64,000 nt of DNA from an uncultured Planctomycetota bacterium (GCA_963845755.1 CAWJTV010000011.1:512001-576000), one strand, 5' to 3'. Counted from the first letter of the stretch, positions 7,892 to 54,558 are shown. The notes: generated by a model not told the origin, from the letters alone. Numbers and translations: made by a program.

Positions 7892-7900
7892 CCACGACCG

Positions 7901-13449: not shown

Positions 13450-13551
13450 GGGCCATTCCGCTCGGATTCTGGTAAAATCGTGACGGGGGCCGAGTGTCCG
13501 TGGACCACCGGATCGCGTCGCTCCCGATGCCCTGTTTCCGGGAGATCCGCC

Positions 13552-13815: not shown

Positions 13816-14189
13816 TTCTGCTGGATACCGATGTCGCAATCGACATCCTTCGCGGTTTTCCACCGGCCGTGGCGTGGCTCCAGGGGCTCGGCACCTCGGT
13901 CCTCGGCATGCCGGGATTGGTCGTGATGGAACTCGTTCAAGGTTGCCAGAACAAGGCCGAACAACTGCGGGTCGAGCAATTCTGCCTACCGCATCCCCTA
14001 CTCTGGCCCACCCACGCCGACTGTCAGCGCGGCCTGGCGGACTACGTGGCCTTCCACCTGAGTCACGGTGTTGGCCTGCTCGATGTCCTGATTGGTCACA
14101 CAGCGGTCGGCCTGAACGAACCGCTGGCGACCTTCAACGTCAAGCACTACCAGATCATCACGGGGCTGAAGACGGTCCAACCGTATTGA
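13812..14189 (+). CDS. VapC/PIN-domain toxin
   Basis: MILLDTDVAIDILRG...ELVQG...DVLIGHTA...LATFNVKHY PIN pattern. Confidence 0.9.
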   Translation: MILLDTDVAIDILRGFPPAVAWLQGLGTSVLGMPGLVVMELVQGCQNKAEQLRVEQFCLPHPLLWPTHADCQRGLADYVAFHLSHGVGLLDVLIGHTAVGLNEPLATFNVKHYQIITGLKTVQPY

Positions 14190-22435: not shown

Positions 22436-22973
22436 ATGGGTTACTACTGCGTTTACACCCAGATTCCTGAGGGAACCCTCATGGACCTGGACGAGTCCGA
22501 GGTTTCGACTCTCATCGAGCAGGCGGGTGCGCCAGACAGCCGCGGGACCTCGTTATCGGTCCTGAAGTTGTACGAATCGCCGGGCATGCGGAACGAGTTG
22601 CCCCCGCCAGTGAGCCTGGAAAAAATGTGGCTGGCGCTCCATCACCTCCTGACGGGCGAGTTTCGGTCCGTGGCCTCGCCTCTCTCGCGTGCCATCCTCG
22701 GCGGAAAGACGGTCGGTGGCGGTTGCGCGCCGTTGTCTCTGGGCGGACGAGGTTTGTGAGATCGCGTCCGCGCTTTCCGCGCTGACGCACGAGGAGCTCC
22801 AGCGACGCTATGATCCGGCAAGCCTCAAGGCGGGTTGGCCCGAAACGCCAGTTGATGAGACCGAGGATGATGAACAGGTTTTCGGGGAACTGGTCGGCTA
22901 CTTCGACCTGCTTGTCACCTACTACCGATTGGCCGCGGCACGAGGGAACGCCCTGCTGATCGGCATCGTCTGA
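22436..22973 (+). CDS. YfbM/DUF1877-like protein (frameshifted)
   Basis: SLEKMWLALHHLLTG...AILGG...EVCEIASAL...RRYDP...YYRLAAARGNALL. Confidence 0.7.
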
Positions 22974-23027
22974 GTCGAACGGCTCGAATCTCGAGCTCCC
23001 ACGGCGCCGGCCCAATGCGACGCCTCG

Positions 23028-23355
23028 ACTCGAGCCCCAGATCGTCGTGTGTGCCGGTCCGGCCCAGGATCAAATCACCGGCCTTCCGCTTGTAGATCAG
23101 GACCCAGTCCGGTTCCACATGGCAATCCCGCCAACCCTTCCAATCGCCTTTCAAGCCATGATCTCTGTGCCTCGCGTCCAAGGGACGATGATGGCACAGC
23201 GACTCGATGATCGCGCGAAGCTTGTCCATATCCTTGCCGCGCCGCCTCTGACGCTCCACGTCTTGCCGAAATTTGGTGGTCGGCTTCGCCACGAGAGGCG
23301 GGGGCGGTGGTGGCGGCTCGGGAGTTGAGGTCTTCTTCGACTTGCGCCTGGCCAC
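23028..23355 (-). CDS. YafQ-family (RelE superfamily) toxin; 3' end uncertain, ORF reads on to 22915
   Basis: TTKFRQD...LDARHRDHGLKGDWKGWRDCHVEPDWVLIY...RTGTHDDL. Confidence 0.88.
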
Positions 23356-23356
23356 A

Positions 23357-23635
23357 TCAAATACCCAGGTCCTCGAACATGGCTTCCAGGCTCGGATAGT
23401 CGAGCAGGTTCTTGCCGGCATCGGCGTCGCGCAGGACCTGGGCGGTTTCCGCGTTGAAGGGAGCATCCTTCTCACGCGGCGCCTTCCTGCTGGCTTTCGG
23501 CTTAGACTCGCCCTTGGCAACCGCCCCCGGCCCGTTCGATCCGGTCCCCTCGGGCTTGGCCTTCTTCGGAGAAACTTTCTTGGGAGTGAGTGCCTCGCCC
23601 TTCGATCGCTTGGGCGTCAGCTTGTCCGTAGCCAT
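23357..23635 (-). CDS. Putative antitoxin with DinJ/RelB-like C-terminus and Lys/Pro-rich N-terminus
   Basis: PFNAETAQVLRDADAGKNLLDYPSLEAMFEDL; immediately upstream of the YafQ-like toxin. Confidence 0.75.
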   Translation of the reverse strand: MATDKLTPKRSKGEALTPKKVSPKKAKPEGTGSNGPGAVAKGESKPKASRKAPREKDAPFNAETAQVLRDADAGKNLLDYPSLEAMFEDLGI

Positions 23636-24022
23636 CGACGATCCTCTTTCTGCATCACCGGGGCAACCGCTGTCTTTCTCGCCGACTCCATCTTACTCAT
23701 TTCCCGGTCTTCCTCAATGTGAGGACCGCGCTTCGGCTGGCGTTCCCTGTTCCGGTCGCACCGTCTTGCGTGCCGTTTTGCCAGCCATGACTTCCCCCTT
23801 CCCGCCGAAAGGGACCTCGCACAACGAAGACCTTGCCAGAGTGCCGTGGCAGACATCTCGCCGCATGGCCTGGTCACGGTATAGGATGAGTCCCGGGATG
23901 CAACCCGAGATTCGGGGGCTCGATCCGACGACCCGGTGTCGGATTCCCACCGCGAGTCGGTGAGCGAACTCTGGGAGAGAGCCCACTCGGTCAGCCTCGG
24001 GATTCGATGGGGATCTGTGGCG

Positions 24023-24621
24023 ATGAACGATGTGACCCGGATTCTCGCGGCGATCGAACAGGGCGACCCGGGCGCCGCCGATCGGCTCTTGCCGCTGGTT
24101 TATGAGAAGTTGCGCAACTCGCCGCGGCGCGGCTCGCCCGGGAAAAACCCGGCCAGACTCTTCAGGCGACGGCCCTGGTCCATGAAGCCTATCTGCGACT
24201 CGTGGACGGTGACGACACGAAGCCGTGGAACGGTCGCGGCCACTTCTTCGGCGCGGCGGCCGAGGCCATGCGGCGGATCCTCGTCGAGAACGCCCGCCGG
24301 AAAGGTCGGGGCCGGCATGGCGGCGGTCTCAGGCGAGTTGAGCTCGACGCGGCATGTTCGCTGGCCGAGCCCCCGCCGGACGACGACCTGCTCGCGCTCG
24401 ACGAGGCGCTCGACCGGCTCGCCGCGCTCGACCCGAAGCGGGCCGAGGTGGTGAAGCTCCGATTCTTCGCCGGGCTGACCATGCCGGAGGCGGCCGACGC
24501 GATGGGCGTCTCGCTGGCGACGGCCGAGCGATACTGGGCGTTCGCCCGCACCTGGCTATTCGCCGAGCTGAAAGAAGAGCCTCCGTCCGACGCTCAGCCG
24601 AAAAAATCATCTCCGGCGTGA
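24023..24621 (+). CDS. ECF sigma factor 1, TIGR02999/ECF43-like (frameshift near 24120)
   Basis: MNDVTRILAAIEQGDPGAADRLLPLVY; HFFGAAAEAMRRILVENARRK; VVKLRFFAGLT; WAFARTWL. Confidence 0.92.
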
Positions 24622-24668
24622 GGGGTTTCGAGGGATTCCGTCGCACGGACAGACAGAACCCTGCATAA

Positions 24669-24736
24669 GAGGCTATTTCAAAAAGGGGACAGGCACCTCG
24701 AAGACTCGGAGCCAGTCCCCGTTTTGAGATAGCCAG
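24669..24736. mobile_element. MITE-like palindromic element C
   Basis: TAA | GAGGCTATTTCAAAA ... TTTTGAGATAGCCAG | TAA with inner GGGGACAGGC / GCCAGTCCCC; core CTCGAAGACTCGGAG also occurs at about 1507..1521. Confidence 0.65.
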
Positions 24737-24750
24737 TAAGGAGCCCCCTC

Positions 24751-27700
24751 ATGACTGACCTGTCCGCCATCGAGTCGATCTTCCTGGCCGCCCTGGAGCG
24801 GCCGACGCCCGAGGCCCGGTCCTCATACCTGGACGCCGCCTGCCTCGATCCCGGAAATCCGCCGGCACGTCGAGCGACTGCTCAATGCGCATCCCAAGGT
24901 CGGCAGCTTCCTCAATGCCACCGCCGAGGCCGGGGACCGCACCGACGATTATGCGCCGATTTCCGAGGGGCCCGGCACCCTGGTCGGCCCGTACAAGCTG
25001 ATGGAGCAGATCGGCGAGGGGGGCATGGGCCTGGTGTTCGTCGCCGAGCAGCAGCAGCCCGTCCGCCGCAAGGTTGCGCTCAAGATCATCAAGCCGGGGA
25101 TGGATACCCGGGACGTGATCGCCCGGTTCGAGGCCGAGCGCCAGGCCCTGGCCCTGATGGACCACCCCAACATCGCCCGCGTCCTCGATGCCGGTAAGAC
25201 CGAGAGCGGCCTGCCCTACTTCGTGATGGAGCTGGTCAAGGGGATGCCCATCATCGAATATTGCGACGTCCACCAGCTCGCTCCCCGAGACCGCCTGAAG
25301 CTGTTCGTCAACGTCTGCCAGGCGGTCCAGCACGCCCACTCCAAGGGCGTCATCCACCGCGACCTGAAGCCGTCGAACATCCTGGTGGCCCCCCACGACG
25401 GCGTGCCGGTGGTCAAGGTGATCGACTTCGGCGTCGCCAAGGCCGTCGGCCAGCAGCTCACCGACAAGACGATCTACACCCGCCTCCAGCAGATGATCGG
25501 CACGCCGCTGTACATGAGCCCCGAGCAGGCCGAGATCAACGCGCTGGACGTCAACATCCGCAGCGACGTCTACAGCCTCGGCGTGCTCCTGTACGAGTTG
25601 CTCACCGGCACGACGCCGTTCGACCGCCAGCGGTTCGCCACCGCGGCGTACGACGAGATCCGCCGGATCATCAAGGAAGAGGAGCCGCCGAAGCCCAGCA
25701 CGCGGCTCAGCACCCTCGGAGAGGCGCTTTCGCACCGTGTCGATGCGACGGAAGACCGAGCCGGCGAAACTCTCGGCCCTGGTGCGAGGCGACCTGGACT
25801 GGATCGTGATGAAGGCGCTCGAGAAGGACCGGTCGCGGCGGTACGAGACGGCCAGCGGGATGGCCAGAGACGTCGAGCGTTACCTGGCCGACGAAGCGGT
25901 CGAAGCCTGTCCCCCTTCGGCTTTGTACCGGTTGAAGAAGTTTGCCCGCAAGCACCGGGCCGCCCTGGCGACGGCCTCGGCGATCGCCGCCGTGCTGGTC
26001 CTGGGGATCATCGTGAGCGCCTGGCAAGCGGTCCGGGCCAGGCAGGCCGAGCGGATCGCTCGCGTGGAACGCGATCGAGCTGTCGTCGCGGAACGTGTCG
26101 CCGAGGTTTCTCGGCAGGAGACGGAGGCCAAACGGCAAGAGGCCGAGTCAGCCCGGCAATCGCTGCGGCGATCGCTCTACGTCTCGGACATCCAACGGGC
26201 GCAGGCGGCCTGGGACAGCGGCAACCGCGACGTGATGTGCGACCTCCTGGAACAGCAACGGCCGGGATCGGGCGATGACGACCTGCGCGGATTCGAGTGG
26301 CGTTACCTTCGAAGATTGGGCTCGACCCTCCGTGTGGTCGAATTGTCCGATCGTCTGAAACTTGGGACGATGAGCCGCGACGGGACTCGTTACGTCGCCA
26401 CCGCATATTCGCAATTGAAGAAGGGACCGCCCGACGCGTATGAACTCGAGCTCAGGCTGGCGGATGGTCTGAGCGGCAAAGAAGTGCGCAGGATCGATCC
26501 CTACCCTGGCGAGATCCAGACCATTGGCATCCCTTCGATCCAGTTTAGCCCCAACGGCCATCGCTTCGTCCACCGTTCGCAAGCCCGCGACGCGTCGGGT
26601 CGTCCGGTCAAATGGCGTGTCAAGGTCTGGGATTGGTTGACCGGTCGCGAGGTGTTTGCGCGCTCCGACCTCACCGGAGTGGTCTCGATGCCGGCGTTCG
26701 ACCCCTCGGCGACCCGGTTGGCAACGGGGATCGCCCGGCCCAGGGATCAAGCCGGTGGCGACTTGATCATCTGGGACATCGATGGCGGAAAACAGCTCCT
26801 GGCGATCCCGTTACCGGACCGCCAGTTCGGTGACTGGTCCTCGATCACATTCAGTCCGGATGGGACACGCATCGCCGCCGTGTTGCTGCCCGCCAGACTC
26901 CTATGCCGCCGACGCTCCGCGCGAGCTCCGGGCCTGGGACGCCGCCACGGGCAAGGAGTTGTTCCGCCACGATACGGGCCCCGGGGCGACCGCCCTGGCC
27001 TATAGTCCCGACGGGCGAACCCTGGCGGTCTCCGGCGACGGCGGGCCAATGCATCGGATCCGGGATGCCGGCTCGGGCAAGGAGATCCTCAAACTCACCA
27101 TGGGGGAGGAGGGCCTGATAAACTGAACGGCTCGACCCGATCGCCTTCAGTCCCGACGGAACCGCGCGTGGCCGGCACGGTCTGAGGACGGGAAAGTGCG
27201 GATCTGGGACGTGACCCCGGATGAGACCAGGGCGAGCCGATCGCCGGATCTGATCCTGAAAGGGAACAACGGACCAGGGTTTCGGATGTGGCCTGGAGCA
27301 CCCATGGCCAGTTCGTCTCGGCCACGGCCCAGGGCCGCAAGATCCTGACCTGGGAGGTCCTGGCCCAGGACGAGCACCTCACGATCAAGGGGACTGACGA
27401 GACGACCCGGGTTGGGCCGACCTCGACGGCGAGTGCGAATCGGTTCGCCGCCGCCTTCGGGACGGCGAGGGCCCGGGAAGACCGAGATCAAGGTCTGGAA
27501 TCAGGCGGGTCAGGTGCTGTTCCAGACGACCGAACCCGCCCCGGACGGTCCCAGGAACAGAGAGAGTGTTCGAGCGGTCAAGCTCAGTCGCGACGGCACC
27601 CGACTGGCGTACCGCGCGAATTATGACTGGTTCGAGCCGATGGGACGAAAAAAGCGGTCAGCTCAGGTCCGGGTCTGGGACATCGCGACAGGTCGAAGCG

Positions 27701-28489
27701 TGTTCCATCGCGACCGCGAGGATAACTATGCCCTCGACGTCTAGCATCTGGTTCGACGACGTTGCCCTCAGTTCCGATGGACGGCTTCTGGCGACGATTG
27801 CGGCCAGAGGATCCTTATCGGCGTCAAAGTCATTGCTTTCCGTCCGAGAGCTCGATTCGGGCGAAGAGCGCCTCCATCGAGATCTGGATGGGGAAATCCA
27901 TGTACAAGATCGTCTTCAGCCCCGACGGCCGCCGGGTCGCGGGCAACATCTGGCTTCGATCCAGGGAGTCTCTGGCTACTGAGCTTCGAGTCTGGGATGT
28001 CGCGACGGGCCAGGTGGTCCTGAGCCGTAAATGGGACGAGAGCCCTCCCCACGAGCCGTCCTATAGCGGAGACGGCCGATGGTTGGCATTGCCATTGGCG
28101 AAGAGAGACGGTGGCAGTGTGATCAAGGTTCTCGACGCCGCCAGCGGCGAGGAGCGTCACTCGCTCACGGGTCATGGCTTTCCGATCTTGGGGGTGACTT
28201 TCAGCCCCGACAGTCGGCGACTTGCCTCCTTCGACATCTCACGGACCCAGTACTTCCGACGTCAAGCTCTGGGACCTCGCTATGGGGAAGGAACTGCTGA
28301 CCTTCTCGACAAAAGCGCTCGAGCCATCTTCTTCGAGGGGGCCGCATGTTTGTTCCGACGAGGAGCCTCTCGTTCAGTCCGGACGGCAACCGCCTGTCCT
28401 ACGTCGTCGGGAGCCATGGTCGCGAAGCCAGGGTGCAGTTCTGGGACGCCACCCCGATGCCGGACGAGAAGGCCGAAGCCTCGCGATGA
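24751..28489 (+). CDS. Ser/Thr protein kinase 1 with TM segment and WD40 repeats (multiple frameshifts)
   Basis: [28 protein letters not shown]; hydrophobic [29 protein letters not shown] repeats. Confidence 0.9.
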
Positions 28490-28595
28490 CTACCCTGAAG
28501 CGGCCCGGTGGATTACCCTGGATGTCGACGTCCCGTGCTCTAGTGTCGATCCACGGCCGCGACGCCCTGGGATTGGTCCGGAACGGCCTCCACCG

Positions 28596-29168
28596 ATGAA
28601 CGAAGTGACGCGGATCCTCGAAGCGATCGACCAGGGCGAGCCCGGCGCCGCCGATCGGCTCTTGCCGCTGGTCTACGACGAACTGCGCAAGCTGGCCGCC
28701 GCGCGGCTGGCGCGAGAAAAGCCCGGGCAGACCCTTCAGGCGACGGCCCTGGTCCACGAAGCCTACCTGCGCCTGGTGGGTGGTGACGATGCCAAGCCGT
28801 GGAACAGCCGCGGCCACTTCTTCGGCGCGGCGGCCGAGGCCATGCGGCGCATCCTCGTCGAGAACGCCCGGCGCAAGGCGCGCATCCGCCACGCTGGCGG
28901 CCTGAATCGGATCGACCTGGACCGGATCGACCTCGCCGCGGACGAGGCATCGGACGAATTGCTCGCGCTCAACGACGCCCTGGACCGTCTGGCCGAGGAG
29001 GAGCCAACCGTCGCCGAAGTGGTCAAGGTCCGGCACTTCGCCGGGTTGACGATCGAGCAAGCCGCCGCGGCGCTGGGCATCTCGGTGCGCACCGCCAACC
29101 GCCACTGGGCCTATGCCCGTGCGTGGCTCTATCAGCAGTTGAATCCTCCCGACGGAACGACGGATTGA
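28596..29168 (+). CDS. ECF sigma factor 2, TIGR02999/ECF43-like
   Basis: MNEVTRILEAIDQGEPGAADRLLPLVYDELRKLAAARLAREKPGQTLQATALVHEAYLRL. Confidence 0.94.
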   Translation: MNEVTRILEAIDQGEPGAADRLLPLVYDELRKLAAARLAREKPGQTLQATALVHEAYLRLVGGDDAKPWNSRGHFFGAAAEAMRRILVENARRKARIRHAGGLNRIDLDRIDLAADEASDELLALNDALDRLAEEEPTVAEVVKVRHFAGLTIEQAAAALGISVRTANRHWAYARAWLYQQLNPPDGTTD

Positions 29169-29370
29169 GAGACTGTCTCGGAAGGTCTTTGTAGGGTGCT
29201 CTGTGAGCACCGATCTGGCGGACTGGGCCGAATTCGGTGCTCACAGAGCACCGATCCGGCGGACTGGGCCGAACTCGGTGCTCACAGAGCACCGATCTGG
29301 CGGACTGGGCCGAATTCGGTGCTCACAGAGCACCCTACGAGACGGCCGTTGAGGCTTCCGGGACAGACTC
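29169..29370. mobile_element. MITE-like element B containing a GTAG-type REP doublet and three 41-bp tandem units
   Basis: TGA | GAGACTGTCTCGGAAG ... CTTCCGGGACAGACTC | TGA; inner GTAGGGTGCTCTGTGAGCACC (29191..29211) inverted with 29318..29338; 41-bp units start at 29205, 29246 and 29287. Confidence 0.82.
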
Positions 29371-29458
29371 TGAGAGAAATCGCGAATCTGATGGCACGAT
29401 TCGCTCCGGGACGTCGCACTGCCCTCCAGAGAGATCAATTCAGATGGAGGACCGAGCC

Positions 29459-32400
29459 ATGAACGCGGAAAAGCCGAGCGTCAAAGCGATCTTCGACGAG
29501 GCCGTGGAGATCGAAGATCCCGGAGCGCGACGATCTTATCTGGATCGGGCTTGCACGAACGACGTCGAGCTCCGCCGAAAGCTGGATGCCCTGCTGCAAG
29601 CGTATGGCGACGCCGGTAGCTTCCTCCAGAAGCCGGCAATCGATGCGGACCTGACCGACCCGTTCACACCCTCTGCTCGCTCGCCCGCGACCGCAAGAGC
29701 CCCGGCCCATCACCGAAGGACCTGGGACCTGCATCGGTCCTTATAAGCTCTTGCAGCCGATCGGCGAGGGCGGCATGGGCATCGTCTACATGGCCGAGCA
29801 AGAGAAGCCGGTCCGGCGGCGCGTCGCGCTCAAGATCATCAAGCCGGGGATGGACTCCAAGCAGGTGATCTCGCGGTTCGAGGCCGAGCGCCAGGCGCTG
29901 GCCTTGATGGACCACCAGAACATCGCGCGCGTGCTGGATGCCGGCACGACCGAGACCGGCCGCCCGTATTTCGTCATGGAGCTGGTGCACGGCGTCCCGA
30001 TCACGAAATACTGCGACGACGTCCAGCTCAATCCCCGCGAGCGTCTCGAGTTGTTCATCCCCGTCTGCCAGGCGATCCAGCACGCGCACCAGAAGGGGAT
30101 CATCCACCGAGATATCAAGCCCTCGAACGTCCTGGTGACGCTCTACGACGGCAAGCCCGTCGCCAAGGTGATCGACTTCGGCGTGGCCAAGGCCACCGAC
30201 CAGAGGTTGACCGAGCGCACCATGTTCACCCAGTACGGTTCGATCGTCGGCACACTCGAGTACATGAGCCCCGAGCAGGCCGAGATGAGCGCCCTGGGGG
30301 TCGACACGCGGAGCGACGTCTATGCGCTCGGGGTCCTGCTCTACGAGCTCTTGACCGGCACGACGCCGCTCGAGCGCGCGTCGCTGCGCGAGGCGGGCTA
30401 TGCCGAGATCCTGCGTCGGATCAAGGAAGAGGAGCCGCCCAGGCCGAGCACCCGACTGAGCGAATCGGGCGACGCGCTGCCGTCGATCTCGGCCCAGCGC
30501 AAGACCGAGTCGGCGAAGCTGGCGAAGTTGATGCGCGGGGAGGTCGACTGGATCGTGATGAAGTGCCTGGAGAAGGATCGGACGCGGCGGTACGAGACGG
30601 CCAACAGCCTGGCCCGCGACGTCGAGCGTTACCTGGCCGACGAAGCGGTCGAAGCCTGTCCCCCTTCGGCTTCGTACCGGCTGAGGAAGTTCACCCGAAA
30701 ACACCGGACCGCCCTGGCGACGGCCACGGCGTTCGTCGCCCTGCTGATCCTGGGGACCATCGTGAGCGCCTGGCAGGCGGTCCGGGCCAGGGTTGAACGA
30801 GATCGAGCGGTCCACGCAGAACGTGTCGCCGAGGATTCCCGGCGCGAGACGGAGGCCAAACGGCAAGAGGCTGAGTCAGCCCGGCAATCGCTGCGGCGAT
30901 CGCTCTACGTCTCGGACATCCAACGGGCGCAGGCGGCCTGGGACAGCGACAACGGCGATGGGATGCGCGACCTCCTGGAACAGCAACGGCCGGGATCGGG
31001 CGATGACGACCTGCGCGGATTCGAGTGGCATTACCTTCGAAGATTGGGCTCGACCATCCGTGTGGTCGAATTGTCCAACGATCTGGCTTTTGGAACGTTG
31101 AGCCGCGATGGGACGCGTTACGTCTCCCCGGTGTATTCGCGATCGAAGAAGGGACCGCCCAACGCGGCTGAGCTCGAGCTCAGGCTGATGGATGGTCTGA
31201 GCGGCCGAGAAGTGCGCAGGATCGATCCCTACCCTGGCGAGATCCTGGTTTTTAGCCTGGATACGATCCAGTTTAGCCCCAACGGCCATCGCTTCGTCCA
31301 CCGCTCGCAAACCCCCGACGCCTCGGGTCGGCCGGTCAAATGGGGTTTCAAGGTCTGGGATTGGTTGACCGGTCGCGCGATGTTTGCGCGCTCCGACCTC
31401 ACAACAATGGTCTCGGCGCTGGCGTTCGACCCCTCGGCGACCCGGTTGGCAACGGGGATCGCCCGGCCCACGGATCAAGGCGGTGACGACCTGATCATCT
31501 GGGACATCGACGGCGGAAAACAGGTTCTGGCGATCCCGCTACCGGACGGCCATTTCCGTGGCTCGCCCTCGATCACATTCAGTCCGGATGGGACACGCAT
31601 CGCCGCCCTGTTATGGCCCGCCCGACCCTATACCTCAAGCGCCCCGCTCGAGCTCCGCGCCTGGGACGCCACCACGGGCAAGGAGCTGTTCCGCCACGGC
31701 ATGGCACCCCGGGCGACCGGCCTGGCCTATAGTCCTGACGGGCGAACCCTGGCGGTCTCCTGCGACGGCGGGACGATGCATCGGATCCGGGATGCCGGCT
31801 CGGGCAAGGAGATCCTCAAACTCACCATGGAGGAGGACCGGAAGGACCGGAGAGGGCCCGACTCGATCGCCTTCAGTCCCGACGGAACGCGCGTGGCCTA
31901 CGTGTCGGAGGGCGGGAAAGTCCACATCTGGGACGTGTCCCCGGATGAGACAAGGGCGACCCGAACGCCGGATCTGATCCTGAAAGGAAACTGGGCGCTC
32001 GTTTCGCACGTGGCCTGGAGCGCCGACGGCCGGTTCGTCTCGGCCTCGGGCCAGGGCCGCAAGATCTTGACCTGGCAGATCCAGGCCCAGGACGAGCATC
32101 TCACGCTCAAGGGGACTGACGAGGCGACCTGGGCCGGGCCGACCTCGGCGGCGAGTGCGAATCGGTTCGCCGCCGCCTTCGAGACGAAGCGAGGGCTCGG
32201 GAAGACCGAGATCAAGGTCTGGGATCAGGCGGGTCAGGTGCTGTTCCAAACGACCGAACCCGCCCTAAACGGTCCCAGGATCAGCCTTACTCGTCGAGCG
32301 GTCCAACTCAGTCGCGACGGCACCCGACTGGCGTACCACGCAACTTACCAGTCTCGAGCCGATGGGGCCGAAAAGAGGGTCGTTCAGATCCGGGCCTGGC

Positions 32401-33227
32401 ACATCGTTACAGGTCGAAGCATATTCCATCGCGACCGCGAAGAGATCATTGCCCGCGACCTGGATCTCAATTCCGACGTCGTTGCCCTCAGTTCCGATGG
32501 ACGGCTTCTGGCGACGGTTGCGGCCAGAGGGCCCTTATCGTCGGCAAGTTCAACGCTTTCCGTCTGGGAGCTCGATTCGGGCGAAGAGCGCCTCCATCGA
32601 GATCTGGATGGGGTCTTCCTGCAAACGATCGTCTTCAGCCCCGACGGCCGCCGAGTCGCGGGCACATTCTGGCCTCAACCCGGGGTGCCTCAGGCTTCTG
32701 GGCTTCTTCGAGCCTGGGATGTCGCGACGGGCCAGGTGGTCCTGAGCCGTAAATGGGACGAGCACTCTGCCGGCGAGCCCTCCTATAGTGGAGACGGCCG
32801 ATGGTTGGCATTGCCATTGAGGAAGAGAGACGGTGGCGGTGTGATCAAGGTCCTCGAGGCCGCCAGCGGCGAGGAGCGTCACTCGCTCACCAGTCATGGC
32901 TTTGGGTTCGGGAGGGTGACCTTCAGCCCCGACAGTCGGCGACTTGCCTCCTTCGACATCTCACAGGTCTTTGCTTTCCATCCGTCCGACGTCAAGCTCT
33001 GGGACCTCGCCGTGGGGAAGGAACTGCTGACCTTCTCGACGAAAGCGATCGAGCAACCTTCTCTGGAAAGGGCGATGTCTTTTCCGGCAAGGAGCCTCTC
33101 GTTCAGTCCGGACGGCAACCGCCTGTTCTACGTCGTCGGCAGCTATGGTCGCGAAGCCACGGTGCATGTTTGGGACGCCACCCCGCTGCCGGACGAGAAG
33201 GCCGAAGCCTCGCCACGACTACCCTGA
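29459..33227 (+). CDS. Ser/Thr protein kinase 2 with TM segment and WD40 repeats (frameshift near 29700)
   Basis: Complete Hanks kinase motifs, TM segment [16 protein letters not shown], long WD40 array. Confidence 0.93.
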
Positions 33228-33324
33228 AGCGACCCGGTGGATTACCCTGGATGTCGACGCTCCGTGCTCTGGTGTCGATCCATGGCCGCGGCGCCCTTGG
33301 GTTGGTCCGGAACGGCCTCCACCG

Positions 33325-33897
33325 ATGAACGAAGTGACGCGGATCCTCGAAGCGATCGACCAGGGCGAGCCCGGCGCCGCCGATCGGCTCTTGCCGCTGG
33401 TCTACGATGAACTGCGCAAGCTGGCCGCCACGCGTCTCGCCCGGGAAAAACCCGGCCAGACGCTCCAGGCGACGGCCCTGGTCCACGAAGCCTATCTGCG
33501 CCTGGTGGCTGGTGACGACCCGAAGCCGTGGAACAGTCGCGGTCACTTCTTTGGCGCGGCGGCCGAGGCCATGCGGCGGATCCTCGTCGAGAACGCCAGG
33601 CGAAAACGGCGCGTAAAGCACGGTGGTGCTCAGCATCGGGTCGATCTGAACGAGGCCGTCCTCTCGACTGACGGTCCGGCGGAAGAGCTGCTGGCCGTCG
33701 ACGAGGCGCTCGAGCGCCTCGCCGTCGAGGAACCGCAGGCTGCCGAGCTGGTCAAGCTGCATTACTTCGCCGGGCTGACCGTCGAGGAAGCGGCCGAAGT
33801 GCTTGGCGTATCGGCCAGAAAAGGCTATCGGATCTGGGCTTACGCGAGAGCCTGGCTCTTCCGCTACCTGGGTAGTGAGCAAGCGTGTGGAGACTAA
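33325..33897 (+). CDS. ECF sigma factor 3, TIGR02999/ECF43-like
   Basis: N-terminal half nearly identical to ECF2; LVKLHYFAGLT...WAYARAWL. Confidence 0.94.
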   Translation: MNEVTRILEAIDQGEPGAADRLLPLVYDELRKLAATRLAREKPGQTLQATALVHEAYLRLVAGDDPKPWNSRGHFFGAAAEAMRRILVENARRKRRVKHGGAQHRVDLNEAVLSTDGPAEELLAVDEALERLAVEEPQAAELVKLHYFAGLTVEEAAEVLGVSARKGYRIWAYARAWLFRYLGSEQACGD

Positions 33898-33989
33898 ATC
33901 CCGAAAACTCGGCTGACGTGGCAGTGATTCGTTCGGGATGTCGCACTGGGTTGGTGAGGTCATCAGAATCCCCTTGGGAGGACCAGACG

Positions 33990-36900
33990 ATGAATGCCAC
34001 CAGCCCCGATGTGAAATCGATCTTCGGCCGGGCCCTGGAGATGGAATCCGCGGCCGAGCGGTCCGCCTTCCTGAGCGCGGCCTGCGCGGCGGACCCCGCG
34101 CTCTGCGCAGAGGTCGAAGACCTGCTCCGCGCCATGGAGGGCGCCGGCGATTTCATGAACCGGCCGGCGGCGACGGGCTCGGTCACGATCGCCCATGCCC
34201 CGATCCTGGAAGGCCCCGGTACGAGGATCGGCCCGTACAAGCTCTTGCAGCAGATCGGCGAGGGGGGCATGGGTGTCGTCTACATGGCCGAGCAGGAGAC
34301 GCCCGTCCGGCGCAAGGTGGCGCTCAAGATCATCAAACCGGGGATGGACAGCGCCCAGGTCGTCGCCCGGTTCGAAGCCGAGCGCCAGGCGCTGGCCGTG
34401 ATGGACCACACCCACATCGCCAGGGTCTTCGACGCCGGCACCACCGAGACCGGCGCCCGTACTTCGTCATGGAGCTGGTCCATGGTGTACCGATCACCAA
34501 GTTCTGCGACGATGCCCAGCTCACACCACGCGAGCGCCTCGAGCTGTTCGTACCGGTCTGCCAGGCGATCCAGCACGCGCACCAGAAGGGGATCATCCAC
34601 CGCGACATCAAGCCGTCGAATGTGCTCGTGACGATGTACGACGACCGGCCGGTGCCCAAGGTGATCGACTTCGGCGTGGCCAAGGCGATCGAGCAAAGAC
34701 TGACCGAGCGGACGCTGTTCACCCAGTTCGGCGCCCTGGTCGGCACGTTCGAGTACATGAGCCCCGAACAGGCCGAGATGAACGCCTTCGGCGTCGATAC
34801 ACGGAGCGACATCTATTCGCTGGGGGTGTTGCTCTACGAGCTGCTGACCGGCACGACGCCGCTGGAGAAGCAACGGCTGCGCGAGGCGGCCCTTGGTGAG
34901 ATGGTGCGGCTGATCAAGGAGGAGGAGCCGCCGCGTCCGAGCGTGCGGCTGAGCAGTTCCGGCGACCTGCCCAAGATCGCCGCGGCGCGGAAGACGGAAC
35001 CAGCGCGACTGTCCAAGCTGGTGCGCGGCGAAGTCGACTGGATCGTGATGAAGTGCCTGGAAAAGGACCGGACGCGACGGTACGAGACCGCCAGCGGGCT
35101 GGCCAAGGACGTCGAGCACTACCTGCACGACGAGTCGGTGGAGGCATGCCCGCCGTCGGCCGGCTACCGGCTCCAGAAGTTCGCGCGCAAGAACAAGCGG
35201 TGGCTGGCGACCGCGACGGTCATCGCCGTGCTGCTGGCGCTCAGTGCGGCCGATGGCGCCTGGCTGCTCCTGCGCACCGCGCGGGCCGAGCGTCAAGCGA
35301 TGGAGGCCCTCAAGCGGGCGATGCAAGAGGCCGCCAACGCCGCCCAGGCCCAGAAGGACGCCTTGCGTCAGAGGGACCTGGCCACGGCCCAGCGTCAAAC
35401 GGCCGAGGACGCGAGGCAATCGGTGCGGCGGTCGCTGTACGCCTCGGACATGCAACTGGCCGAGGAAGCCTGGGAGTCGGGCGATATCCCTCGAATGCGC
35501 GACCTGCTGGAGGAACATCGGCCGCGGCCGGGCACGCCCGACCTGCGCGGCTTCGAGTGGCATTACCTGCGCGGGCTGGGCACGACCGTCCACATCGCCA
35601 AGCTGGCCCAGGACTCGACCTTCGGACAGCTCAGTCTCGATGGAACGCACTACGTCTACGTGGGCATGCTCTTCCCGCATCATGAGCCGGATGCGGGCAA
35701 GAAGCTCGAGCTGAAGCTGGTGGATGTCACCTCGGGCCGGACGGTGCGCCAGATCGTCCCCTTCCCGGACGAGACGATGAGCAACGTCCATGTTCCGCTC
35801 ACGTTCAGCCCCGACGGCAAGCGTTTCCTCGCCATGATGCGCGTCACCGACAAGTCGGGCCGCAGCGCTTGGCGGATCAAGGTCTTCGATTGGGAGACCG
35901 GTCGCGACATGTGCACGCTCGCCGATCTCGGCGGAGTGCCGGGCGCCGCGGCCTTCGACCATTCGGGCGGGAGGCTGGCCGTGGTGACCCTCCGGCAGGA
36001 GGGCCAGGCGGGTAGCGACCTGAGGATCTGGGATCTCGCCAGCGGCCGGCAACGCCTGGCGATTGCCTTGCCGGGCCGGCACATCGTACACCTCCATTCG
36101 GTGGCGTTCAGCCCCGATGGAACCCGCCTCGCGACGCTGACGAAGCCGGTCGGCCCCGAAGCCTCTCGGTCCGCGGGCGAAGTCCGCGCCTGGGACGCCG
36201 CTTCGGGTGCGGAGTGGCTGCGTTTCGAGACCGGGCCGGCCTCGGCCGGCCTGGCGTATAGCCCCGACGGCAAGTGGCTGGCGGAAATCAGCGTCGGCGG
36301 GGCCTCGCACCGGCTACGAGATGCCGGATCGGGGAAGGAGGTCCTCGAGCTCACCACGGCCCCGAGCGCCGGGATCTCCTTTTCGGTCGCCTTCAGCCCC
36401 GACGGCTCGCGGCTGGCCGTCAGTTCGCAGGATAGCAAGGTGCGGATCTGGAACGTCACGGACGTCGAGACCGGAGGCGGCCGCGCTGCCGACCGCATCC
36501 TGGATGGAAAGATCACGTTGCTGGACCACGTGGCCTGGAGTGCCGACGGCCGGCAGGTGTTCGCGTCCAGTGACAATGGCGCGGTCATGTCGTGGCCGGT
36601 CACCGCGCGCAGCCGCAAGTCGCGGTGAGGGGGTCGGGCCCGACCGAGCGGGTTACGGCGACCGCGGCCGCCGCCAACTCGCGGTTCGCTGCCGCGTTCG
36701 AAGCTCCCGGCGGGATGACCGTCCTGAAGGTCTGGGATGAGGCCGGCCATGTCCGTTTCACGACGGATGTCGCCTCGGCGGGCTACGGCTCGCCTCTCAT
36801 GGACCCCAAGAAGGTCGTGCTCAGCCGCGACGGTAGCCGTGTGGCCTACCACGGCTGGGATCCGCGCCAGGCGGACGGGCCGCCGAAGAAGATCGGCCGG

Positions 36901-37716
36901 CTGCGCGTCTGGGACGTCGCAACGGGCCGAGAGGTGTTCCACCGCGAGGGCGAACTCGAGAGGGGCCTCTTGTATCACGCGGCCTTCAGTCCCGACGGGC
37001 GACGGCTGGCCACGTCATGGAACGTGTGGAAAGACTCCCAGCCGGAGCGAAAGCACTGGGAGTTCCAGGTCTCGATCTGGGACATCGAGACGGGCCAAGA
37101 ACGGTTGCACCTGGATCTGCCGTTGCCGACGACTCTAGCGTTCAGTCCCGACGGGCGACGGCTCGCGGGCGGGCTGTCCTCTTCCTGGTCGAGCCCGGGG
37201 CGGGAGAGCGAGGTCCGGGTCTGGGACGCCGCGACGGGCGAGACGTTCCTGACCCGGAAGTTCGCGCACGGCCTGATCGACGCCGTGACCTACAACGGCG
37301 ATGGCACGTTGCTGGCTGCGGCCGTCGGCAACGTGGGCGACGCCGGAGTGATCAAGGTGCTCGACGCCGCCAGCGGCCGGGAGCGGCTGTCGTTCGCCGG
37401 TCATCGCTACATGATCTGGAAGCTGGCGTTCAGCCCCGACGGCCACCGGCTGGCCTCGCTGGCCTCGTTCCCGATGCAAGTGGCGGAGGTGAAGCTGTGG
37501 GACCTCGCCGGCGGCCGGGAGCTGTTGACCCTGAATCCGACCGGAGTCAACCTGGTCGGGAGCAACGGTTCCGGGAATAGCGGATTCGCCTTCAGCCCCG
37601 ATGGTCATCGCCTGTCTTATCTTCCCGGCGGGTCGAGGCGCGACGCCGAGGTGCAGGTCTGGGATGCCACGCCAATGCCGGACGAATCGGCCGCGGTCTC
37701 CGGTCGCCTGCGATGA
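33990..37716 (+). CDS. Ser/Thr protein kinase 3 with TM segment and WD40 repeats (frameshifts near 34455 and 36610)
   Basis: [33 protein letters not shown] linker; FSPDG repeats. Confidence 0.92.
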
Positions 37717-37808
37717 ACCACCGGCCGGAGACGTCTCGCCGCTCGATGATCTCCCGGGATAGAATGGAAGGAGAGACGATTTGCGGGTTAATGAGAGAGA
37801 CTCGATCC

Positions 37809-38582: not shown

Positions 38583-38876
38583 CTTCAGCCCCCGACGGGC
38601 GGCGGCTGGCCTCGGTCCCCAGGCGAGCCGCGGGTGTGAATCTGTGGGACACTGCCGGAGGCCGCGAGTTGTTGACCCTGAAGACCGCCGGAATCGACCT
38701 GGTCGGGAGTAACGGCCTCAGCAATAGTGGCTTCGCATTCAGCCCCCATGGGCATCGCCTGTTTTATCTTCCCGGGGGCTCGCGCCGCGATGCCGAGGTC
38801 CAGGTCTGGGACGCCACGCCGCTGCCGGACCAGCGCGGCCGAGGACTCCGGTCCTCGCTGATGAGCCGCCGGCCGG
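38583..38876 (+). repeat. Decayed direct repeat of the kinase 3 3' end (about 37428..37728)
   Basis: [63 protein letters not shown] vs [63 protein letters not shown]. Confidence 0.92.
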
Positions 38877-39113: not shown

Positions 39114-42100
39114 ATGGCCGCCGACGCCGATCGCCACCTCCTCTTTGGTCTACTCGCCTTGCAGAACGGCCTGATCGACCAGGCACAGCTGGTGGCCGCC
39201 TTCCAGTCGTGGACCCGCGACAAGGACCGACCGCTGGCCGACCATCTCGTGGATCTGGGCTACCTCGACCGAGCGCACTGCCCGCTCCTCGAAGGCCTGG
39301 CCGCTGTTCACCTCGCCCGCCACGGCGGCAACGCCGAGCAGAGCGTGGCGGCCATCCCAGCCGGCAAGTCCACGCGCGAGAGCCTGGCCAGGATCGGCGA
39401 TCCCGACCTGGTCGGCACGCTGGCCCGGGTCGGCCCGCGCTCAACCCTGCAAGACGATGACGGTGATGCCGACCGCACGGCCTCGTACTCCGTCGGCGCG
39501 GCCACCAGCGACGGCCAGCGGTTCCGCGTGTTGCGGCCCCATGCCCGGGGCGGCCTGGGGGCCGTCTTCGTGGCGCTGGACACCGAGCTGCACCGCGAGG
39601 TGGCGCTGAAGCAGATCCTCGACCACCACGCCGACGACCGGGTCAGCCGCCAGCGGTTCCTCCTGGAGGCCGAGGTCACCGGCGGGCTGGAGCACCCGGG
39701 CATCGTGCCCGTCTACGGCCTGGGCAACTATGGCGATGGCCGGCCCTATTACGCCATGCGGTTCATCAAGGGGGACAGCCTCAAGGAGGCCATCGAGCAG
39801 TTCCACGCCGATGAGTCGTTGAAGAACCAGCCCGGGAGGCGCTCGCTGGAGCTGCGCAAGCTGCTCCGTCGTTTCACCGACGTCTGCAACGCGATCGACT
39901 ACGCGCATTTGCGCGGCGTGTTGCATCGGGATATCAAGCCGGGCAACATCATCGTCGGCAAGCATGGGGAGACCCTCGTGGTCGACTGGGGTCTGGCCAA
40001 GGCCCGAGGGCGCGCCGACGTCGCCGAGTCCAGCGATGAGCGACCGCTCTTGCCCAGCTCGGCCAGCGGCTCGGCCGAGACGCTGCCGGGTAGTGCGCTG
40101 GGCACACCCGCCTACATGAGTCCGGAGCAGGCCGCCGGCGAGCTCGACCGTCTGAGCCCGCGGTCGGATGTCTACGGCCTCGGGGCCACGATGTACTGCC
40201 TGCTGACGGGAAAGGCGCCATTCGAGAATGACGATATCGGCGAAATGCTCCGCCAGGTCCGCAAAGGCGAGTTCCCGCCGCCGCGAGCGATCGACCCGGC
40301 GATCGACCGCGCCCTGGAGGCCGTCTGTCTGAAGGCGATGGCCACGAAACCGGAGGATCGTTACGGTTCGTGTCGTGCACTGGCCGACGACATCGAGCGC
40401 TGGATGGCCGACGAGCCGGTCACGGCATGGTCGGAGCCGTGGACGCGGACGCTCTTGCGCTGGCTAACCCGGCACCGGGTCGGTGTGACGGCGGCCGCGG
40501 TGGCGGGCCTGGTCGCACTGGTCGGCCTTGCTGCCGTCGCCGCCACGCAGGCGCAAGGCCGCGCGGCACTCGAGATCAAGAACCGCGAGCTGGCCGATGC
40601 CAACGCGAAGGTGCAGGCGCGCTACGACCTGGCCGTCGACGCCATCAAGACGTATTACACGGGGGTCAGCGAGGATTTTCTCCTCAGGGAGGATAAGTTC
40701 AAGGACCTTCGCAACCGGCTCTTGAAGTCGGCTGCCGACTTCTACGGCAAGCTCGGCGCGCTGCTGGGCAAGGAGAAGGATTTCGTCTCGCGGCGTGCGC
40801 TGGTGGCCTCGAACTTCGAGTTGGCCGACTTGACCGACAAGGTCGGCCGCAAGGAGGATGCGCTAGCGGCACACCGCGCGGTTCTCGCAGCGAGGGAGAC
40901 GCTGGCGGCCGAGCCCGGGACGGACGCTGCGACCAAGGCCGAAGTCGGTTTGAGCTTGACGGCGATCGCCACCTTGCTGACTTCGACCGAGCGGACGGAC
41001 GAGGCGCTGGCGACTTTTCGCCGGGCGGAGTCGCTGCTGGCGGGCCTGGCGGAGTCCGAACCATCGGCGCGGGCTGCGCTGGCGGCCTGCCGAATTGAGC
41101 TAGGTTTTCTCCTGTACCTTACGGGCAAGTCGGCCGAGGCACTGGCGGTCTACAAGATGGCGCTAGCCGATCAGGAGGCGCTGGCCGCCGCCCATGACGC
41201 CTCGAACGACGTGCGCCACGGATTGGCGCACACGCACCGGCGCATTGGCGTCCTGCTCATGAACATGGACAAGCTGGTGGACTCGGAAACCGAGCTCCGC
41301 GCGGCCATGGCGATCTACCAGAAGCTGGCCGACGACAACCCCGATGTCATCGAATTCCGCAGCTCCCTGGCGTACAGCCACTACCTTGTTGCCACCGTGC
41401 TCATGAAAACGCACCGCCCGGCGGTGGCCGAGTACCGCGCGGCCCTGGCGATTCAGCAGGAGGTGGTCGCCGACAATCCCGCCGTCACCTCATTCCGCAG
41501 GTTCCTGGCGATGAGCCACCTCGACGTTGCCACCGCGTTGCAATTTGCGGGTGAGTCGAGCGCGGCGGAGGCCGAGCTCCGCACGGCGAGGGAGACTCTT
41601 CAGAAGCTAGCCGACGACAACCCCGACGTCACCACATTCCGCATGTACCTCGCGCAATCGTACGACAGCCTCTCCAGCCTGTTGTCGGAGGAGGGCAAGT
41701 CGGCGGAGGCGGAGGTCGCGGCCCGCACGGCCGTGGCGATCCTGCGAATGGTGGTCGACGACAGCCCCGACGTCGGCACCTACCGTTTCAACCTGGCGCT
41801 GAGTCACAACGGCCACGGCTGGCTGCTGTCGCAGACGGGCCGGCCGTCAGAGGCGGAGCCCGTGTACCGCGAGGCGCTGGCGATTCTTCAGAAGGTGGCC
41901 GATGAGGACCCGAAGGTCCTGAGTCATCGACAGAACGCAGCCAATGTCGGCAACAATCTCTCGACGGTACTCCGCCGGCTCGGCCGCCCGGCCGAGGCCC
42001 GCGAGCAGTGCGAGCGAGCCCTCACCATTATGGAGGACCTGGCCCGAGAGGACCCCGGGGCGACGAGATACCGCGACGGCCTGGCAGAGTGCTACCTCAG

Positions 42101-42653
42101 CCGCAGCCTGATCCGACGTGCCCTGGGCGACCCCGCCGGCGCCGCGGCCGACGCCCGTCGGGCGGTGGCGCTGTTCGACGCCCTGCCGCCGCGGTCGGGC
42201 GAGCGAACGTTCTTGTCCGCGTGTGCCCACGCCGCGCTGGCCGGCCTGGCCGGTCGCGATGGCTCGGGCGTGGCGGCCGCCGAGGCAACGTCCGAGGCCG
42301 AGACGGCCGTGGCCCGGCTCCACAAGGCCGCCGGCGTGGGCTACCGCAACCCCGACGCCTACCGCACCGAGGACGCCCTCGACCCGCTCCGCGGACGGCC
42401 CGACTTCCAGTTGCTGATCATGGACCTGGCCATGCCGGCCGAGCCGTTCGCCGGCCCCCACCGAGACCCGGCGGGCGGCTGGGAGACCTCCGGTCCGGCC
42501 CGCGGCGGCGACTCTTCGGGTACCCGGAGACCCGTGCCTAGCGCGGCGCGTGCGCAACGCAACCGATCGGCGCTCTCAATTCACTTTTCGGCCACCTCGA
42601 GGGCGACCGAGTCCAGCCACGCGCAACCCACTCCGACCAGCGCCAGTCCGTAG
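39114..42653 (+). CDS. Ser/Thr protein kinase 4 with TM segment and TPR repeats (true stop may be earlier)
   Basis: DRHLLFGLLALQNGLID N-terminus; HARGGLG, HRDIKPGN, DWG, GTPAYMSPEQ; repeated 'QKLADDNPDV..FR..LA' helices. Confidence 0.92.
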   Translation: MAADADRHLLFGLLALQNGLIDQAQLVAAFQSWTRDKDRPLADHLVDLGYLDRAHCPLLEGLAAVHLARHGGNAEQSVAAIPAGKSTRESLARIGDPDLVGTLARVGPRSTLQDDDGDADRTASYSVGAATSDGQRFRVLRPHARGGLGAVFVALDTELHREVALKQILDHHADDRVSRQRFLLEAEVTGGLEHPGIVPVYGLGNYGDGRPYYAMRFIKGDSLKEAIEQFHADESLKNQPGRRSLELRKLLRRFTDVCNAIDYAHLRGVLHRDIKPGNIIVGKHGETLVVDWGLAKARGRADVAESSDERPLLPSSASGSAETLPGSALGTPAYMSPEQAAGELDRLSPRSDVYGLGATMYCLLTGKAPFENDDIGEMLRQVRKGEFPPPRAIDPAIDRALEAVCLKAMATKPEDRYGSCRALADDIERWMADEPVTAWSEPWTRTLLRWLTRHRVGVTAAAVAGLVALVGLAAVAATQAQGRAALEIKNRELADANAKVQARYDLAVDAIKTYYTGVSEDFLLREDKFKDLRNRLLKSAADFYGKLGALLGKEKDFVSRRALVASNFELADLTDKVGRKEDALAAHRAVLAARETLAAEPGTDAATKAEVGLSLTAIATLLTSTERTDEALATFRRAESLLAGLAESEPSARAALAACRIELGFLLYLTGKSAEALAVYKMALADQEALAAAHDASNDVRHGLAHTHRRIGVLLMNMDKLVDSETELRAAMAIYQKLADDNPDVIEFRSSLAYSHYLVATVLMKTHRPAVAEYRAALAIQQEVVADNPAVTSFRRFLAMSHLDVATALQFAGESSAAEAELRTARETLQKLADDNPDVTTFRMYLAQSYDSLSSLLSEEGKSAEAEVAARTAVAILRMVVDDSPDVGTYRFNLALSHNGHGWLLSQTGRPSEAEPVYREALAILQKVADEDPKVLSHRQNAANVGNNLSTVLRRLGRPAEAREQCERALTIMEDLAREDPGATRYRDGLAECYLSRSLIRRALGDPAGAAADARRAVALFDALPPRSGERTFLSACAHAALAGLAGRDGSGVAAAEATSEAETAVARLHKAAGVGYRNPDAYRTEDALDPLRGRPDFQLLIMDLAMPAEPFAGPHRDPAGGWETSGPARGGDSSGTRRPVPSAARAQRNRSALSIHFSATSRATESSHAQPTPTSASP

Positions 42654-51326: not shown

Positions 51327-54558
<3,232 letters not shown>

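Follow-up and report, generated by a model that had tools for sequence, protein, structure and literature searches.

Tandem membrane kinase genes of an uncultured planctomycete with exchanged WD40 sensors and fast-changing loops on one propeller face

Planctomycetes carry hundreds of membrane kinases with sensors made of WD40 or tetratricopeptide (TPR) repeats. In kinases of this type the kinase domain is cytoplasmic and the WD40 or TPR array is periplasmic (PMC11032199). Two such genes, K1 and K2, lie in tandem in a 64,000-nucleotide (nt) stretch of DNA from an uncultured Planctomycetota bacterium (GCA_963845755.1, CAWJTV010000011.1:512001-576000), which is referred to here as the window and in which all positions are counted from the first letter. 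They share with the described planctomycete membrane kinases a cytoplasmic Pkinase domain, a single membrane helix and, towards the C-terminus, a WD40 array for which a periplasmic location is predicted, as well as a history of growth in number through duplication and recombination inside lineages; K4, further along the window, represents the TPR form of the same class. The published account contains no rate analysis of the sensors, and the term 'positive selection' occurs zero times in its main text. Unlike in that account, the locus described here has a sensor that changes at roughly ten times the rate of the kinase domain and is swapped between tandem modules.

In its organisation the locus also resembles the ECF43 (EcfP/PknT and EcfK/PknS), ECF59-62 and ECF217 groups of extracytoplasmic function (ECF) sigma factors, in which the sigma gene adjoins a kinase gene on the same strand (PMC7826278, PMC8999054). 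According to these sources, the sigma factors of ECF43 and ECF59-62 have kinase partners. EcfP becomes active once PknT has phosphorylated a threonine standing in place of the acidic DAED motif, and activation of the sigma factor by the kinase has been shown for ECF43 members and proposed for the planctomycete ECF59-62; PknT and PknS are not described there with WD40 sensors. Repetitive prokaryotic WD40 proteins provide a further likeness, being bacterial, often linked to kinases, and composed of a conserved scaffold with diverse predicted hotspots on the top face (PMC5587647, which refers to Wu et al. 2012 on hotspots of the top face). A solved member of this group, 2ymu, is the best fold match of the K2 sensor. 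In that work repeats are compared within one protein, whereas the present comparison is between paralogs and orthologs whose internal repeats are old and diverged. The nearest published remark concerns cyanobacteria, in whose kinase WD40 domains the interacting residues are said to be highly diverged (PMC11032199, citing PMC5587647); in the open-access library searched, no work was found that describes selection on, or exchange of, the sensors of planctomycete kinases. Taken one by one, K1, K2 and their sigma factors fall within known families (Hanks-type kinases, WD40 propellers and PF07638 sigma factors) and are unremarkable there. The apparent novelty for this class lies in three traits that come together: the kinase is conserved, the sensor is exchanged between tandem modules, and fast replacement is limited to the face presumed to bind ligands.

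A preliminary description of the locus, made from the sequence alone, had likened it to the fungal HET and NOD-like receptors (NLRs). In the HET-E, HET-D and NWD members of that class, variation is reported to concentrate on the binding face of the WD40 propellers, with recombination between paralogs (PMC4986451, PMC12222747). The analogy fails on architecture. No NACHT or NB-ARC domain was matched by Pfam in K1, K2 or K3, there are two to three paralogs, the blades are 21% identical rather than highly conserved, and the extracytoplasmic sensor would feed a kinase and not a cell-death domain. Blade-to-blade identity within the sensor averages 21.2% and reaches at most 40.8% (91 pairs), and a search of the sensor for tandem DNA repeats found none. 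With so little identity between blades, a shuffling of repeats within the gene, as in the fungal receptors, is unlikely here.

The window is part of a 14.3-Mb genome in 49 contigs (88% complete), the closest named relative of which in the collections is an uncultured Isosphaeraceae assembly. From about 24.0 to 37.7 kb it holds a tandem array on one strand in which an ECF sigma gene is followed by a kinase gene; the sigma genes lie 98-106 nt downstream of K1 and K2, and 41-276 nt upstream of K3 and K2. The features on which the argument depends are the following.

24751-28490, plus strand: K1, a membrane Ser/Thr kinase with a type-A kinase domain (Pkinase match 7.1e-44, in the open reading frame (ORF) 25001-26278)
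25850-28870, plus strand: K1 copy of the recently exchanged tract, comprising the juxtamembrane region, membrane helix, coiled stalk, sensor and first half of sigma1
26313-28490, plus strand: K1 sensor, coding region of the 14-blade double propeller, from the alignment to the K2 sensor
28596-29168, plus strand: sigma1, an ECF sigma gene (PF07638, match 8.6e-61)
29444-33227, plus strand: K2, a membrane Ser/Thr kinase with a type-B kinase domain (clean ORF 29751-33227)
29751-30605, plus strand: K2 kinase domain (Pkinase match 2.6e-42; catalytic motifs read)
30708-30785, plus strand: single membrane helix of K2, ORF residues ~320-345 (Kyte-Doolittle hydropathy)
31041-33227, plus strand: K2 sensor, two seven-bladed WD40 propellers (AlphaFold2 model, Foldseek, Pfam)
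31077-33081, plus strand: span of the 19 difference clusters of the K2 sensor (K1 counterparts 26349-28352)
33325-33897, plus strand: sigma2, an ECF sigma gene (PF07638, match 2.1e-61)
33938-37716, plus strand: K3, the third kinase of the array, with a diverged sensor, used as internal control

Several lines of evidence agree on the architecture of these proteins. The Pkinase family (PF00069) scores 145.5 bits for K2 and 150.6 bits for the K1 fragment against a cut-off of 31.7, and the Gly-rich loop, VAxK lysine, HRD..N, DFG and SPE motifs can be read in both translations. The only 19-residue windows of K2 with a Kyte-Doolittle value above 1.6 begin at residues 319-328, which corresponds to one hydrophobic helix. 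The C-terminal 728 residues were modelled with AlphaFold2 as 55 strands in 14 four-stranded blades (predicted local distance difference test, pLDDT, 82.3; predicted template-modelling score, pTM, 0.68). Foldseek retrieves double seven-bladed WD40 propellers as the best matches, namely 2ymu (1.4e-27), Aip1 (1nr0) and Apaf-1, and Pfam finds WD40 (3.6e-17; 62.5 bits, cut-off 27) and PD40 (4.1e-15). K1 and K2 are receptor-type Ser/Thr kinases with a cytoplasmic N-terminal region and Hanks-type kinase, one helix, a coiled stalk and a periplasmic double propeller, in agreement with the initial view of WD40 propellers placed across the membrane from the kinase and beside ECF sigma genes. The supposed receptor repertoire comes down to two or three genes: of the 222 matches that K2 has in the genome most are limited to the kinase domain, and the sensors are just those of K1, K2 and the distant K3 (about 42-46% amino acid identity to that of K2).

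The history of the sensors was followed in eight protein sequences, namely K1, K2, the single kinase of the relative G001 (G001-K) and P0004-P0008, five intact full-length metagenome proteins of 1242-1259 residues that were compared as proteins only; the codon analyses use the three DNA sequences K1, K2 and G001-K, with K3 and its G001 ortholog as control. The K1 kinase domain is 94-96% identical to those of P0005, P0007, P0008 and P0011, and the K2 kinase domain is 95-97% identical to those of P0004 and P0006 and 69% identical to that of K1. Two kinase types can be distinguished, type A (K1, G001-K, P0005, P0007 and P0008) and type B (K2, P0004 and P0006), with ~69% identity between them; within a type the kinase domains are 94-97% identical and the attached sensors 66-89%, and proteins whose kinase domains agree at 95-97% have sensors that agree at 66-82%. 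In the kinase tree type A (support 100) stands apart from type B (95). In the sensor tree G001-K, which has an A-type kinase, joins K2 and P0004 (support 99), and P0006, despite its B-type kinase, falls with P0007 and P0005 (100/100). The two trees conflict, which shows that sensors have been exchanged between modules, both here and in related lineages.

The DNA comparison of K1 and K2 is consistent with this. Their units align over ~4.1 kb at 84% identity, and the identity per 100 nt is 63-85% in the kinase domain, climbs to 77-100% between the juxtamembrane region and a point ~270 nt inside the following sigma gene, and then drops. Synonymous divergence (dS) is 0.596 between the kinase domains, with a ratio of nonsynonymous to synonymous rates (omega) of 0.38, as against a dS of 0.136 and an omega of 1.01 between the sensors and a dS of 0.136-0.155 over the exchanged tract. 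The kinase domains are thus old paralogs under strong purifying selection, and the segment that begins in the juxtamembrane region and reaches the middle of the sigma gene has moved between modules by homologous recombination or gene conversion. The boundary is common to the sigma genes, the tract ending inside the sigma gene: residues 1-95 of sigma1 and sigma2 (the sigma-2 half) are almost identical, and residues 100-190 (the sigma-4 half) about half identical. The diverged sigma-4 halves suggest that the two modules may address different promoters.

At the corresponding locus of G001 (L046, G001:C13:146000-165999) a single hybrid gene at 9856-13996, with an A-type kinase and a K2-like sensor, replaces K1-sigma1-K2, which fits an unequal crossover within the sensors and the loss of one repeat unit. 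The G001 assembly is 87% complete and contains no B-type kinase above 81% identity. A collapsed G001 assembly as the cause of the intermediate sensor was considered and rejected, there being no orphan B-type kinase (best match 81%). Between the window and L046, K3 shows a synonymous divergence of 0.19-0.29 and the kinase domain of K1 one of 0.09; the lower value at the K1 end hints at a possible recent exchange between lineages. Among 41 genomes (G000 and 40 relatives) the sensor was found at E ≤1e-60 in two, G001 being the sole relative. A scan of metagenome contigs for DNA of close relatives returned only matches of at most 36% identity, at four loci, and a scan of genome contigs one usable locus (L035, Isosphaeraceae, 8814-11733). 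The latter encodes a B-type kinase, and its sensor lacks a stretch matching window positions 32248-32787 (approximately blades 9-11).

The preliminary description had drawn attention to hypervariable patches in otherwise near-identical sensors. The patches stand: all five pairs that it quoted (including FPILGV/FGFGRV) were found in their places, each directly before an FSPDG-type strand. Near-identity does not. From residue 286 of K2 to the stop codon, 371 of 2657 aligned columns differ from K1, and 321 substitutions in 2607 ungapped columns correspond to 87.7% identity; twenty clusters hold 188 of the 371 differing columns within 364 of the 2657 columns (14%), and identity outside them is ~92%. 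The long identical stretches that had been described are at most 76 nt in length, within the range of permuted alignments (mean 48, maximum 99). The differences are nevertheless clustered in 15-nt windows, with a variance-to-mean ratio of 1.81 as against 0.88 in permutations (maximum 1.26, 2000 permutations).

The location of the clusters on the fold is non-random. Blade strands were labelled A to D from the model, strand A ending in the FSPDG-type motif, with the D-A and B-C loops designated 'top' and the A-B and C-D loops 'bottom'. By WD40 convention the D-A/B-C side is the top, ligand-binding face. The nineteen sensor clusters begin, in K2, at 31077, 31246, 31548, 31632, 31699, 31837, 31899, 31988, 32281, 32338, 32367, 32455, 32541, 32614, 32674, 32763, 32904, 32965 and 33063. 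Thirteen of them have at least half of their residues in top loops (expected 5.0; maximum 12 in 5000 random placements), none touches an A-B or C-D loop (expected 7.6), and the other six adjoin top loops or occupy the long B-C hairpin of blade 9. Across the eight sequences, D-A loop sites have 2.72 distinct residues on average and 17% are invariant, compared with 1.35 and 75% for A-B loops. In the same eight sequences, taken over the 14 blades, the most variable positions are those 5-7 residues ahead of the final residue of strand A, with 3.1-3.6 distinct residues as against 1.1-1.6 from that residue to position +9. The same top loops vary in six relatives. The variable sites are therefore not scattered over the structure, and clusters, omega classes and residue counts all place them on the D-A/B-C loop face, the loops of which are replaced much faster than the rest of the shared scaffold.

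Substitution rates add a second axis to this picture. Between orthologs the kinase domain has an omega of 0.05-0.11, and counting gives 1.01-1.13 for the sensors of K1, K2 and G001-K and 0.47 for the K3 orthologs; on these figures the sensor changes some ten times faster than the kinase domain. Divided by structural class, the counted omega in the three pairs among K1, K2 and G001-K is 1.40-1.88 in top loops, 0.76-1.10 in strands and 0.47-0.56 in bottom loops, and in the K3 orthologs 0.47, 0.43 and 0.36, respectively. With one synonymous rate for the sensor, likelihood estimates are 2.10 for the top, 0.27 for the bottom and 0.65 for the rest (likelihood-ratio test statistic (LRT) for heterogeneity 103.5), and an omega of 1 in the top loops is rejected (LRT 22.8, p 1.8e-6). 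Site models agree, in that M2a is preferred over M1a (LRT 51.3) with seven of ten sites of posterior above 0.9 in D-A loops. The signal persists when gap-adjacent codons are masked (LRT 23.4) and when K1 is left out (LRT 15.5), in which case top loops hold 17 of the 26 sites identified as selected (Fisher 1.6e-5). The ratio in the patches is thus not below 1, at 1.4-1.9 by counting and 1.45-2.1 by likelihood.

Taken together, these observations are read here as receptor kinases with an exchanged sensor in which the top-face loops are replaced fastest, most likely through changing ligand specificity, that is, by diversifying or divergent selection; we regard this reading as about evenly balanced between being right and wrong. 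A number of results weigh against it. The clustering of nucleotide differences is no stronger than in controls, the ratio being 1.62 for the K1-K2 sensors and 1.63 for both the sensor and the kinase domain of the K3 orthologs; patchiness alone is ordinary and is matched by control pairs under purifying selection, and the unusual part is that the changes are mostly amino-acid changing and restricted to one face of the fold. The designation of that face depends on the strand order of the model and the WD40 convention and not on three-dimensional distances. The likelihood omega of the whole sensor is 0.87, not different from 1 (K3 pair 0.23), and that of the top loops given their own branch lengths is 1.45 (p 0.10 against 1). 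The M2a statistic falls to 0 once codons with two or more differing bases are left out; there are 62 of these among 688, and 25 of the 62 lie in D-A loops. In addition, dS is two to three times higher in D-A loops (0.11-0.25) than in the other classes, which suggests multi-base replacement, conversion or misalignment. Only three DNA sequences enter the models, and recombination violates their single-tree assumption. Finally, K1 is untranslatable as assembled, with 15 frame breaks. Multi-base replacement, short conversion tracts or misaligned loops could produce the same signal, and an omega above 1 in the loops is not established; diversifying selection is plausible but unproven.

The rival that survives best is relaxed constraint alone, according to which no part of a WD40 propeller is under less constraint than its top loops, one or both copies drift neutrally after duplication and K1 is decaying. 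It is a real if minority possibility. A whole-sensor omega of 0.87-1.06, the non-significant value for top loops with their own branch lengths, the disappearance of the signal without multi-nucleotide codons and the frame breaks of K1 are all what it would predict, and in the K3 pair, too, the top loops are the most variable (nonsynonymous divergence, dN, 0.141 as against 0.057 for bottom loops). It accounts less well for bottom loops and strands that are still constrained in the same genes (omega 0.27-0.65) and for the same loops of K3, which have an omega of 0.2-0.47. Although the K2 sensor is intact, 44 nonsynonymous and 13 synonymous single-branch codon changes fall on its branch; the five relatives P0004-P0008 are intact as well, and K1 itself is free of internal nonsense codons, with four of its frame breaks contradicted by short-read contigs.

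A more far-reaching form of the selective account is a polymorphic periplasmic receptor. Its two propeller faces would be kept diverse in the population by diversifying or balancing selection, and segmental exchange between the tandem copies would reshuffle loop variants on the common scaffold. Several K1 alleles, different in the loops only, would coexist in the soil population sampled and thereby give rise to the frame breaks at those very places. The ligand would be biotic and fast-changing, for example a signal from kin, a phage, a predator or a competitor, and the receptor would be linked to transcription via sigma phosphorylation. We consider this possible but rather doubtful, and the suggestion of non-self or antagonist sensing, which was part of the initial description, is speculation.

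Patchy gene conversion would need no selection by a ligand. On this view homogenisation of two old sensor alleles is under way, and the patches would be either remnants that escaped conversion or short imports. The raised dS in D-A loops and the conflict between kinase and sensor trees speak for such a mosaic, as does the non-tree-like sharing of motifs, PIL(G/A) being found in K1, P0005, P0006 and P0007, and GFGR in K2, G001-K and P0004. The K1-like and K2-like states of G001-K form 118 runs over 281 sites, fewer than the 139 expected at random (p 0.009), but they are finely, almost fully, interleaved, and no long tracts emerge. A search of the rest of the 14.3-Mb assembly for donors of the 20 cluster variants found none, with only chance matches of 13-19 nt (E ≥0.012), and remnants confined to one face would still require selection against conversion of that face. 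The mosaic is on balance an unlikely explanation. K1 as a silent donor cassette for K2 was dropped, its frame breaks being doubtful and no tract structure being seen. On the three-sequence tree, private changes number 28 sites in G001-K, 94 in K2 and 147 in K1; K1 and K2 are both long branches, in synonymous changes too, which may be due to accelerated change once the gene had duplicated or to a reticulate ancestry.

An assembly artefact, in which the long-read consensus of K1 mixes reads of paralogs or strains and thereby creates both patches and frame breaks, is improbable. Frame breaks were counted by protein-guided alignment tolerant of frame changes (K1 to P0005), and correction of the frames, already foreseen at the outset, proved to be required; the codon comparison of K1 with K2 uses corrected frames. 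There are 15 breaks in K1, one in K2 (~29690), two in K3 (34447 and 36606), and six and ten in the G001 orthologs, so that the load of K1 is ~10 times that of its neighbours; internal nonsense substitutions number zero in K1, K2, K3 and the G001 orthologs. The N-terminus of K2 matches P0004 at 95% in a different frame. The window also contains carB (carbamoyl-phosphate synthase large subunit) split into two overlapping frames (51276-52211 and 51728-54547), a sign of assembly indel errors rather than of a broken essential gene. Together with the breaks in K3 and G001, the carB split demonstrates that indel noise is general in these assemblies.

Beyond this general noise, the artefact would explain why 10 of the 13 K1 breaks that fall in the sensor lie inside difference clusters. 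Homopolymer errors were rejected as the source of the K1 breaks, 20% of which are near a run of at least four bases compared with a background of 15.5%, and this lack of enrichment also favours the artefact; breaks that sit inside clusters and are not linked to homopolymers would fit mixed reads at those places. The region was compared with contigs of public short-read soil metagenomes. None of the 20 sequencing runs listed was an RNA run, and each holds at most 12% of the sampled words. One contig differs from K1 over 27221-27433 by 10 bases and 2 gaps in 213 nt, while other contigs of the same run equal the window. Another is identical to K1 over 151 nt save for one base missing at the frame break at 26897, and spans the cluster at 26905-26983; further contigs lack the extra bases at 27269, 27741 and 28245 of K1, and one lacks a base at 29688 of K2. 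Several K1 frame breaks are consequently consensus errors, or else variants that the population has not fixed. In one run, six contigs with ~1 kb in total span clusters in both genes with zero other letters; cover without mismatch extends over 25028-25157 and 26840-26991 in K1, and over 30738-30944, 31399-31549, 31589-31739 and 32406-32621 in K2. As these contigs are identical over the stretches concerned, the cluster differences that they cover (26905-26983, 31632-31710 and 32455-32554) are real. The patches of K2 are confirmed in this way, the same loops vary in P0004-P0008 and G001, and K1 plays no part in comparing K2 with G001-K. A general caution follows for long-read metagenome assemblies, in which frame breaks gather where paralogs vary most.

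Targeted hypermutation by a diversity-generating retroelement, for which only the localised patches as such might speak, was rejected and has a negligible chance of being correct: the 284 sensor mismatches are spread over the K1 bases (A 74, C 62, G 89, T 59) with no adenine bias, there is no reverse transcriptase among the 32 ORFs scanned with Pfam, and the targets of such elements usually have a lectin-type fold, as opposed to the WD40 fold of the sensor here.

The likely course of signalling can be outlined by analogy. A ligand would bind the D-A/B-C face of the propellers and control the cytoplasmic kinase via the helix and the stalk, and the kinase would then probably activate the adjacent sigma factor by phosphorylation, as in ECF43. 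The sequence around this place reads GQTLQATALVHEAYLRL, and in both sigma1 and sigma2 QATA, including a threonine, would occupy the place of the acidic DAED motif of region 2.2 when positioned by eye against the description in PMC8999054 rather than by alignment to EcfP. No anti-sigma gene was noticed between the sigma and kinase genes.

The remainder of the array and its surroundings offer some further observations, beginning with the two outer members.

~24021-24669, plus strand: sigma0, an ECF sigma gene upstream of K1 (no single clean ORF as assembled)
39114-42653: K4, a fourth kinase, with TPR repeats (Pfam)

The sigma0 region 24021-24513 matches 33323-33813 at 80.4%, its part 24021-24296 matches 28594-28870 at 87.8%, and the ORF at 23936-24454 has a weak match to PF07638 (2.8e-5); the stretch 23841-24669 is 97.2% identical to the G001 locus. 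Directly upstream of the array, on the minus strand, lies an ORF with a YafQ-family toxin domain (22915-23520, 2.5e-28). Between sigma1 and K2 a 41-bp unit is repeated 3.2 times (29205-29334), each unit being a hairpin with two complementary 9-base stem words; the pattern is found 27 times in the genome and resembles a dispersed element of the repetitive extragenic palindromic (REP) kind. The 3' end of K3 (37458-37728) recurs ~1.1 kb downstream at 38605-38876, ahead of K4, with 81% identity. Elsewhere in the window, the stretch 4000-8000 has 75% G+C and internal direct repeats (e.g. 5050-5386 and 5608-5941, 74%), and contains a 979-residue ORF without a Pfam match.

For the large family of planctomycete membrane kinases, the locus points to the D-A and B-C loops of both propellers as the seat of specificity, and it offers natural loop variants for binding and swap experiments. 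A polymorphic receptor, if that is what K1 and K2 are, would be a bacterial counterpart of the rapidly evolving surface receptors of eukaryotes. And if the turnover of the loops is adaptive, bacterial receptor kinases would be shown to be capable of evolving like immune or recognition receptors, and of doing so without a dedicated mutagenic system.

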